64,000 nt of DNA from the NCBI GenBank assembly GCA_035906235.1, contig JAMIFN010000132.1, positions 1,542 through 65,541 of the forward strand. Reading direction: 5' to 3'. Below the pieces are notes generated by a model. The model did no database searches. It was given only the letters and a program-made list of their open reading frames with translations, and was not told the DNA's origin. This DNA is from Brachymonas sp. GTDB taxonomy: Bacteria; Pseudomonadota; Gammaproteobacteria; Burkholderiales; Burkholderiaceae_C. This document shows, one piece after another, positions 51,265-52,977 of the stretch (the stretch's first letter is position 1; every line of letters starts with the position of its first letter). The translations under genes were made by a program, and so were the position numbers.

Positions 51265-52977
51265 ATGCCCAGCTCTGACCTGATTGCCATTGCCCAACTC
51301 AACCCTGTGGTGGGCGATTTGTCCGGCAATGCCGCGCAAATTTTGCAAGCAGCGCAAACTGCCCAAGCTCAGGGTGCCACCTTGCTGCTCACAGCCGAAC
51401 TATCCCTGACCGGCTATACGCCACAAGACCTGCTGCTGCGCCCCGATTTCCTCAGCGCCTGCGCTGAGGCGCTGCAGCAATTGGCACAAGACCTGCATAC
51501 CGCTGCGCCCGGCATACAGGTGCTGGTCGGCCACCCCAGTGGCGCCAGTGCCGATGCGCAAGGCCATTGGGACGATGCCCGCAACAGTGCCCCCTTGTTC
51601 AATGCCGTCAGTGTCTTGCACCAAGGAGAAATTGCGCACACTTGGCGCAAACAGTGTTTGCCCAATTACGGTGTGTTTGATGAGCAACGCGACTTTCAAC
51701 CGGCCAGCGCTAGCCATCAGGCCAGCGTATGGCATTTTGCGGGTCACAAATTGGGGGTGCTTATTTGTGAAGATGCTTGGACACCAGCTCCGGCGCTGGC
51801 CTGTCAGCACGCTGGCGCCGAGGTCTTGCTCATCCTCAATGCCTCGCCCTACCACGCCGGAAAAGCGGCGGAGCGCGTGGCGACCATGCAGCAGCTGCAA
51901 CAAACCTGCCCGTTGCCCCTGATTTACACCCATATGGTGGGTGGGCAGGATGAATTGGTGTTTGACGGCTGCGGCTTTGCCCTGGCCAGAAACGGCCAAG
52001 TTTTGTTGCAAACGGCGGCCTTTGTCAGCGATTTGGCTTTTATCAGTTTATCGACGCTTTTGGGCGCAAAACCTGCCCAAGTAGCTCCTATTTTTGAAGT
52101 GTGGCCCAGCGGCGAGGCCGAGCTGTGGCAAGCCTTGGTCCTGGGCCTGCGCGACTATGTGCGCAAAAATGGCTTTAGTCGCGTCGCGCTGGGCTTATCG
52201 GGTGGCATCGATTCCGCACTGGTGGCCGTTTTGGCTGTGGATGCTTTGGGGGCCGACCAAGTGCACACGGTGATGATGCCATCGCCCTACACCGCCGATA
52301 TGTCGTGGCAAGATGCGCGCGAGCTGGCGCAGCGCTGTGGCATGCGTCACGACGAGGTCGCCATCGCGCCCGCATTGGATGCCCTCAAAACCAGCCTCGC
52401 CCCCGTTTTTGACGGGCGCGGCGAAGATGTGACCGAAGAGAATATGCAGGCGCGGATTCGTGGCCTGATGCTGATGGCGCTATCAAACAAAACCGGCGCA
52501 CTCATCCTCAGCTGCGGCAATAAAAGCGAATACGCCACCGGCTACTGCACCCTCTACGGCGATATGTGCGGTGCTTTTGCCCCCATCAAAGATGTGCTGA
52601 AAACCCAAGTCTTTGCGCTCGCACGCTGGCGCAATGCGCACAACCCATTTGACACGGCCGCGCAACCCATTCCTGAGCGCATCATCACCCGCCCGCCCTC
52701 GGCCGAACTGCGCCCAGGTCAGGTCGATCAAGACAATCTGCCGCCCTATGAAGTCCTCGATGCCTTGCTCTTAGCCCACATGGAAGGGCACGCAGGCGCC
52801 AACGACTTAATCGCTGGGGGTTTTCCTGCCGACATAGTTGGCAAAGTGCTGCGCCTCATTAAAATCAGCGAATACAAACGCCACCAAGCCGCCCCAGGAA
52901 GCCGCGTCAGTCGGCGTGCTTTTGGTCGCGATTGGCGCATCCCGCTCACCCAACAATTCCCCGTCCTTCCAGCATGA
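51265..52977 (+). CDS. nadE: glutamine-dependent NAD+ synthetase
   Basis: N-terminal CN-hydrolase domain (ELSLTGY, VLICED) plus a C-terminal synthetase domain ([12 protein letters not shown]). The start is trimmed to the ATG at 51265. Confidence 0.85.
52035..52089 (+). repeat. 55-bp dispersed repeat, copy 15 (inside the nadE CDS)
   Basis: cgcttttgggcgcaaaacctgcccaagtagctcc (3 core mismatches), translated as ..[12 protein letters not shown].. in the inter-domain linker. Confidence 0.65.

Follow-up and report, generated by a model that had tools for sequence, protein, structure and literature searches.

Rickettsia is the best-known case of short repeats that are translated within housekeeping genes, and uptake sequences are the best-known motifs that are embedded in genes without insertions or deletions (indels). 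Repetitive extragenic palindromes (REPs) are defined as lying outside genes and as strongly palindromic. Here, we analyzed a stretch of 64,000 nucleotides from Brachymonas sp. (GenBank assembly GCA_035906235.1, contig JAMIFN010000132.1, positions 1,542 to 65,541 of the forward strand; hereafter, the window), which contains a dispersed repeat family of approximately 65 nt. One copy of this family lies in frame within nadE, the gene for glutamine-dependent NAD+ synthetase, and we consider it probable that this copy is an old, repeat-derived segment of the NadE linker, purged of stop codons and kept repeat-like by gene conversion or by a DNA-level drive. The closest analogues of the family appear to be the Rickettsia palindromic elements (RPEs) and the uptake sequences of coding regions, and by our comparison it fits neither of them completely.

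The RPEs, together with intragenic copies of MITEs (miniature transposable elements with inverted repeats), ERIC and BOX (PMC10969869), are similar to the present family in that a short repeat occurs in intergenic regions as well as in frame within unrelated housekeeping genes. For RPEs (PMC10969869), the similarity extends to a conserved translated peptide, to locations at the protein surface or in linkers and to an intact host protein, and the extra residues expected of such elements are found in RsmA and PriA. An in-frame peptide conserved in unrelated genes, as in MITE/RPE-type elements, is present here, and the host gene is longer by the length of the element in the case of RsmA, but not in the case of NadE (55 vs. 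53 vs. 50-51 residues, as detailed below). The RPEs are longer, approximately 100-150 bp compared to about 65 nt, and no terminal inverted repeats were seen here: none was conserved in an alignment of the 19 copies in the window. In contrast to RPEs, the NadE, MutS and AmpD copies add nothing to the length of their proteins, and silent sites and orthologous positions are kept across genera; the host, unlike Rickettsia, is a free-living wastewater betaproteobacterium and does not have a reduced intracellular genome.

The DNA uptake sequences (DUS) of Neisseriaceae and the uptake signal sequences (USS) of Pasteurellaceae (PMC3630211; bioRxiv 10.1101/2025.10.24.684340) share with the family an over-represented motif in both orientations, conservation at orthologous sites, intergenic enrichment, and coding copies that are placed without indels in tolerant segments and tolerable frames, as in MutS, AmpD and NadE, although not in RsmA and PriA. 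Coding copies of DUS and USS are reported to be restricted in reading frame (bioRxiv 10.1101/2025.10.24.684340; PMC3630211), and both motifs are reported to be biased toward genome-maintenance genes (bioRxiv 10.1101/2025.10.24.684340). The core of the DUS dialects has an invariant CTG at +6 to +8 and an A at +10 (PMC3630211); CCTGAG of the present core has the CTG, yet G stands at +10. The unit is larger here, 19 nt and about 45 nt of semi-conserved flank versus 10-12 nt for DUS and approximately 30 nt for USS, and some copies, in contrast to DUS and USS, appear to be true insertions. The core presumably shares CTGCCTGA with some DUS dialects, going by the simDUS sequence. Finally, REPs and bacterial interspersed mosaic elements (BIMEs), which are mobilized by REP-associated tyrosine transposases (RAYTs), are similar in being abundant short intergenic repeats with small hairpins, a G(T/C)AG tetranucleotide by the stem and locations in intercistronic gaps; however, the hairpins here are weak (4-7 bp) and copies are also found in genes, so that the family is not one of extragenic palindromes.

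The family is represented in the window by 16 intergenic copies, in both orientations, with the consensus aTTTTCAGG.ATGTTTTTGGCGTTTTAGGCCG.AAAACCTGCCTGAGYAGCT..., in which the 19-nt core AAAACCTGCCTGAGYAGCT is nearly invariant among family copies. The region 5' of the core consists of three phased T-tract sub-repeats (TTTTCAGG.. / TTTTTGGCG / TTTTAGGCCG), and the region 3' of the core is either a run of T (type B) or the short palindrome AGCTATYAAA..ATAGY (type A). A profile hidden Markov model built from only the 16 intergenic copies added three sites, in nadE, priA (E=8e-12) and rsmA (E=0.009). Altogether, the 64 kb contain 19 copies, of which 12 are on the plus and 7 on the minus strand, or approximately one per 3.4 kb; none would be expected by chance.

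The nadE gene (51265-52977, plus strand) encodes a CN_hydrolase domain (residues 19-263) and an NAD_synthase domain (residues 301-555), as assigned by Pfam, and its product matches the Burkholderia thailandensis structure 4F4H with E=3e-167. The ATG at 51265 agrees with the N-termini of relatives (MP(S/T)S); the longest open reading frame (ORF) opens at GTG 51226, and the 13-codon extension (51226-51264) is probably not translated. A sense-orientation repeat copy in the linker between the two domains had been proposed in the original prediction, and it proved to be real: with the intergenic-only profile, positions 52047-52099 (plus strand, in frame, NadE residues approximately 275-292) match profile positions 16-68 with 29 bits and E=3.3e-8. 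Since noise in this search over the window begins only at E>0.2, the nadE copy is not a chance match. The copy is 53 bases long, and the sequence quoted in the original prediction lies at 52055-52088. The reading frame through it, GCA AAA CCT GCC CAA GTA GCT (A K P A Q V A), is the one given there. Three bases differ from the 19-nt core, and the suggested concentration of mismatches in the stop codon holds in a stricter form: both real mismatches fall in TGA>CAA (CAA at 52078-52080, plus strand, Gln285, assigned by alignment to the family consensus and to relatives), while the third is the polymorphic Y position of the family. The repeat also has a second in-frame consensus stop, TAG, which the original prediction did not note; here it is TTG (Leu) at 52060-52062 (plus strand), the register being taken from the family alignment, and a fuller copy in a relative (locus L215) has CAG at that site.

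The 19 codons of the nadE copy have a G+C content at third positions of 0.32, compared to 0.65 for the whole gene, which is the lowest of 552 windows. In the AlphaFold (AF2) model, the copy follows the last glutaminase strand, forms a short helix at residues 275-280 and a coil with pLDDT<50 at residues 283-292, and ends before the first synthetase helix; the copy is translated as approximately 18 residues of the glutaminase-synthetase linker, which is poorly ordered in this model. The nadE segment of the window was recovered without any difference from four independent metagenomes, and there is no polymorphism in the copy.

We compared the DNA of nadE in ten relatives (NadE identity, 64-80%). 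A detectable copy is found at the same codons in nine of them (L001, L096, L098, L213, L214, L215, L217, L100 and L216), the best of them reaching E=1e-9 across 64 nt, and the copy is decayed in the tenth, L212. Presence of the segment across relatives, which the original prediction had put forward for comparison, was thus found nearly throughout, and no empty site was found among them. Three additional codons allow L215 to be aligned to the consensus without gaps, with CAG in place of TAG and CAA in place of TGA. At the TGA site, five relatives have TGG, two have AGA and the decayed L212 has GCG; CAA is found in three sequences, those of the window, L096 and L215. The codons AAA, GCC and GCT beside this site are invariant except in L212, while CAA and TGG share no base at any of the three positions.

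We also fetched DNA of 80 outgroup loci. Many nadE linkers of Comamonadaceae and of the Rubrivivax group (genera including Polaromonas, Acidovorax and Rubrivivax) read CGG GCG CAG/CAA GCA GCT ATT AAA TTA GTA GCA AAT (RAQ.AIKLVAN), which is the 3' half of a type-A repeat, in unchanged register. In many Comamonadaceae, this 3' half is CAR GCA GCT ATY AAA TTA GTA GCA, mostly with Gln (CAG/CAA) at the TGA site. Rare codons (GCT, TTA/TTG, GTA and AAA) are kept in the outgroup linkers even in genomes of 66-70% GC; for example, GCT accounts for 14 of 18 Ala codons at one linker position, whereas GCC and GCG dominate elsewhere. An intergenic ingroup copy holds the same 19-mer, GCAGCTATTAAATTAGTAG, as the outgroup nadE linkers, and a type-A profile run on 775 kb of outgroup DNA placed 10 of its 24 best hits inside the nadE linker. 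A window-type profile found essentially nothing on the outgroup loci apart from relics. Counted from the C-terminal side, the copy of L100 lies in register with that of the outgroups, and N-terminally it is six residues longer; in the window clade, the 3' flank is of type B and there are four residues fewer. It had been stated that a shared linker in repeat-free genomes would make the resemblance coincidental; such sharing was found for the 3' half only, and we read it as ancient common descent, not as coincidence. A further candidate relic, AAI in the NadE linker of Burkholderia, was judged to be chance, as it does not fit the register counted from either side.

The distance from FDG to W..LVLG, which spans the linker, is 55-59 residues in the ingroup (55 in the window), 53 residues in 88 of 105 measured near outgroups and in 33 of 61 measured Burkholderiales loci, and 50-51 residues in Paraburkholderia, Herbaspirillum and Polynucleobacter. 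The linker of the window is, therefore, only 2-5 residues longer than that of repeat-free Burkholderiales, and the alignment to 4F4H is almost without gaps; because of this near-equal length and the almost gap-free alignment, there was no gain of approximately 18-20 codons in nadE. From these sequence comparisons, the nadE copy is ancient, predates this lineage and is not a recent insertion. CAA (Gln) is probably ancestral at the TGA site and no repaired TGA, with TGG derived, because the outgroups mostly have Gln and because in the NadE tree, with moderate support, the window and L215, both of which have CAA, branch at the base of the ingroup, and TGG occurs in a crown clade.

The rule that stop codons are excluded becomes apparent from the other coding copies. 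In the window and approximately 250 kb of loci from relatives, family copies were found in at least eight genes. In the window, rsmA (63029-63859, minus strand) has a sense copy at 63530-63564 (minus strand), in which AAA CCT GCC CAG ATA GCT encodes KPAQIA; L135 has a better orthologous copy, AAA ACT GCC CAA GCA GCT, with TAG>CAG upstream. A gene of the uracil-DNA glycosylase (UDG) family has a sense copy in its N-terminal extension (KPAWAA), and ampD of L100 has a sense copy with AGA CCT GCC GCA GCA GCT (RPAAAA). All sense coding copies (nadE, rsmA, the UDG-family gene and ampD) use one common frame, which contains the two consensus stops, and none of them has TGA. The antisense coding copies use all three frames and keep TGA in four of four cases: one is in priA (30163-32328, minus strand), at 31854-31917 (plus strand) in the linker between the 3'BD and helicase domains assigned by Pfam, where TGA of the core is read as TCA; the others are in mutS and, twice, in a UvrA-like ORF. 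Intergenic copies have TGA at the site in 49 of 62 cases, and TGG is the commonest non-stop variant (7 of 62). Deviation from TGA is thus tied to the sense coding copies, where it would be a stop; by this comparison of sense, antisense and intergenic copies, purifying selection on the normally essential NadE excludes both stops, TAG and TGA. The expected loss of TGA from intragenic sense copies in this frame was, within the DNA that was reached, without exception. Selection against the stop, as originally proposed, is therefore retained, while the proposed sequence of events, insertion followed by conversion of TGA to CAA, is not, as the copy is orthologous down to 64% protein identity and the Gln is probably older.

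At the protein level, unrelated genes share in-frame peptides, KPA[QWR][AV]A in NadE, RsmA and the UDG-family protein and RPAAAA in AmpD, as well as the antisense peptide SCSG[SR]F.GL in PriA and the UvrA-like protein. The effect on length differs between genes. MutS at its copy (E=2e-14) is within one residue of Neisseria gonorrhoeae 5YK4, and AmpD aligns with 1J3G without gaps. The loop of RsmA, on the other hand, varies: the ingroup has 45-59 residues, most outgroups have 37, "empty" alleles have 26, and Escherichia coli and Burkholderia have 29-30, the loop of the window being 15-21 residues longer than those of 3UZU and E. coli; judging by these lengths, the insertion polymorphism in RsmA is real, and the junction between filled and empty alleles is not clean. 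The outgroup loops of RsmA carry the repeat-derived [PS]A[QWR]xA[IT]KN[IV]AN. In PriA, there are 12-24 extra residues in a hypervariable linker compared to the nearest outgroups, and the ingroup has ESCSGSFDGLK, which is absent in these outgroups; a gain of length by the element is plausible from the alignment.

The antisense copy in MutS is near full length (E=2e-14) and comes from a metagenome-assembled genome (MAG), CAZUUN (L088:2002-2056), where it overlays existing codons of domain III. The two antisense copies of the UvrA-like ORF (MAG CAZSPW, L095:697-757 and 4173-4238) are in different frames of one ORF of 1906 residues with a duplicated UvrA architecture. A type-A-like motif, TCTGCGCAAGCAGCTATTGAATCGATAGCA (SAQAAIESIA), was observed in an rsmE-type methyltransferase gene of Variovorax sp. 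PCZ-1 (L218:4441-4466) and of L240 (3113-3139), genomes that are otherwise without the window-type family. Immediately 5' of the rsmA start codon of the window, at 63885-63931, there are tandem arrays of GGCAAT (four to five units) followed by TTGACAG/TTGGCAG heptamers. In the MAG CAZJBX (L022:3001-4689), a NadE homologue of 51% identity has a glutaminase domain that is degenerate, with LLGQDAAD where the nucleophile motif LICEDAW stands, and an intact-looking synthetase domain; this homologue may therefore have lost the glutamine-dependent activity.

In the scenario that we consider probable, the repeat sequence would occupy existing linker codons instead of adding about 20 new ones, and Gln (CAR) would be the oldest state of the TGA site, present from early on. 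TGG in the crown group would then be a later three-base switch to the commonest non-stop variant of the family. The nadE copy may have been re-templated repeatedly through short-patch gene conversion from other copies in the genome, of which there are many; alternatively, the copy may be maintained by selection or drive on the DNA motif itself. The change between CAA and TGG with invariant neighbours is a hint of templated replacement from a TGG-type copy, and among the processes that could keep the copy repeat-like, gene conversion from the expanded family is favoured. Where the amino acid is identical, third codon positions have an identity of 0.88 over the core and of 0.61 over the whole gene; the core value is the second highest among 9-codon windows of nadE, although the linker belongs to the least conserved stretches of the protein.

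Several points weigh against this scenario. The silent-site excess is no more than suggestive, given that the ingroup is unsaturated (background 0.61) and that the sequences are phylogenetically related. Single outgroup nadE matches are weak (E of 0.01-8), and the argument for deep homology comes from the position, the register and the use of codons. No nadE allele with an empty site was found, so that an original insertion is no more than possible. L212 has decayed its copy without losing nadE, so that maintenance is not obligatory. Gene conversion itself is inferred, and the copies per genome are too few for tracking of the variants of the own genome.

A molecular drive similar to that of uptake sequences, in which copies arise in situ by point mutation and biased fixation wherever the protein tolerates them, is a possible but rather less likely explanation in our analysis. 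It would account for the MutS, AmpD and NadE copies, which overlie segments of unchanged length, for the strict conservation of the core at orthologous intergenic sites with drifting flanks, for the nearly random orientation relative to transcription (17:11) at the above density of copies, and for the phased T-tracts beside a conserved core. The frame restriction of coding copies is known for DUS and USS too, and four of the eight host genes (priA, mutS, the uvrA-like gene and that of UDG) function in genome maintenance, although this sample is small and biased to long proteins. However, a unit of about 65 nt is far longer than any known uptake sequence and is much more intergenic, and the core lacks the invariant A at DUS position +10. 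There are length gains at the RsmA and PriA copies, and drive cannot account for the relics in outgroup nadE and rsmA, where no genomic family is detectable. A related proposal, tentative and of similarly limited probability by the same comparisons, is that the repeat would be a signal at the DNA level that drive maintains, for instance an unusually long uptake or recombination signal of an uncultured wastewater lineage of Burkholderiaceae/Comamonadaceae; its copies would enter genes without indels and then be retained at silent sites, with relics in nadE, rsmA and rsmE that are older than one taxonomic family.

It is unlikely that the motif is retained as a cis element selected within nadE, such as an RNA hairpin, a rare-codon pause or the protein-binding palindrome GCTAYTAAWTTARTAGC, with the same factor recognizing all copies. 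The conservation of rare AT-rich codons and of a 15-17 bp palindrome in nadE linkers of genera with 55-70% GC is consistent with such an element, as are the position between two domains in nadE and the same motif inside outgroup rsmA and rsmE. Against this, the hairpin predicted by RNAalifold has only 4 bp and no covariation, Rfam gives no match, the window clade has swapped the palindromic 3' half for another flank, and L212 retains nadE without the motif.

Still less credit can be given to the original interpretation, that the repeat inserted into nadE in this lineage and that TGA then changed to CAA under selection. The copy is real, its mismatches do gather in the stop codon, and the greater length of RsmA and PriA at their copies, compared to near outgroups, means that the family does insert. 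However, the NadE linker exceeds repeat-free homologues by just 2-5 residues, the copy is common to the relatives and, in part, to distant genera, and Gln at this codon is older than the lineage; moreover, an insertion carrying TGA and TAG into an essential gene would be immediately lethal, so that no phase of conversion is possible. A chance likeness between an Ala/Pro-rich linker and the repeat is hardly worth considering: RALPAAIAP of B. thailandensis NadE does align with GAKPAQVAP, and Ala-rich linkers resemble the translation of the repeat, but the nucleotide match reaches E of 3e-8 here and 1e-9 in relatives over 53-64 nt including flanks, and L215 has a fuller, ungapped copy.

It should be added where the intergenic copies detected by nhmmer are located. 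On the plus strand, these are 6745-6810, 6835-6899, 10740-10804, 11112-11173, 16143-16207, 20350-20408 (a TGG variant by alignment), 20469-20532, 49032-49096, 54922-54988 and 59671-59732; on the minus strand, 15299-15363, 30100-30165 (also a TGG variant by alignment), 36232-36293, 40666-40730, 44480-44542 and 62456-62520. The copy at 49032-49096 lies in the gap between the adaptor and pump genes of a resistance-nodulation-division (RND) system and has orthologous copies in five relatives; that at 44480-44542 lies in the ribBA-ribH gap and likewise has orthologous copies in relatives. At these orthologous sites, CTGCCTGAGCAGCT is kept exactly, while the flanks drift. The family acts in the manner of a signal at the DNA level, either selected or driven: its core is kept at orthologous sites, conservation extends to silent sites, and coding sequence contains it in any orientation. 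A 92-codon minus-strand ORF at 10792-11070, between two repeat copies, is without a Pfam match and is probably no gene; the surrounding gap of 450 bp holds the two copies and several small hairpins.

Among 185,579 species genomes, the exact extended core was present in only four, all of them MAGs of uncultured Burkholderiaceae, and the source organism is common in metagenomes from wastewater and activated sludge. The degenerate pattern AAAACCTGCCNNNRYAGCT, run against genome contigs, gave matches that, among those listed, were mostly random across bacteria, with few further family loci. A related family with the same core and type-A 3' half and a different 5' half (GGCCCWGGTAAAACCTGCCTGAGTAGCTATTAAATCGATAGCAAA) was observed in the Burkholderiales MAG JANYEE (L106, L116, L138 and L153); given this different 5' half, the core module would therefore recombine with different flanks in different lineages. 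A literature search for the core sequence found no relevant paper.

Known classes of functional elements did not account for the repeat. Rfam covariance models at gathering thresholds gave no match in the whole window, and RNAalifold on the 16 copies found only a 4-bp hairpin without covariation, for which reason a structured RNA was rejected. A scan of the 1-20 kb region for sigma-70 promoters and intrinsic terminators flagged none of the six repeat copies there, and by-eye comparison with the consensus sequences of sigma-54, sigma-28 and the integration host factor (IHF) found none that fits. Co-orientation with transcription, which seemed significant in the window (15 of the 19 copies), did not hold in a larger ingroup sample with flanking co-directional genes, where the orientation bias was not significant (17:11, p=0.34).

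One element thus shows two behaviours in free-living betaproteobacteria, in-frame insertion (rsmA and priA) versus a length-neutral overlay of existing codons (nadE, mutS and ampD). The AT-rich islands of rare codons that such copies create in linkers should not be taken for recent horizontal insertions. If the pattern holds, the linker of an essential enzyme would be set in part by a DNA-level process and not by the needs of the protein, and the family would provide a tractable test of how repeats and coding sequences co-evolve, be it through conversion, drive or selection.

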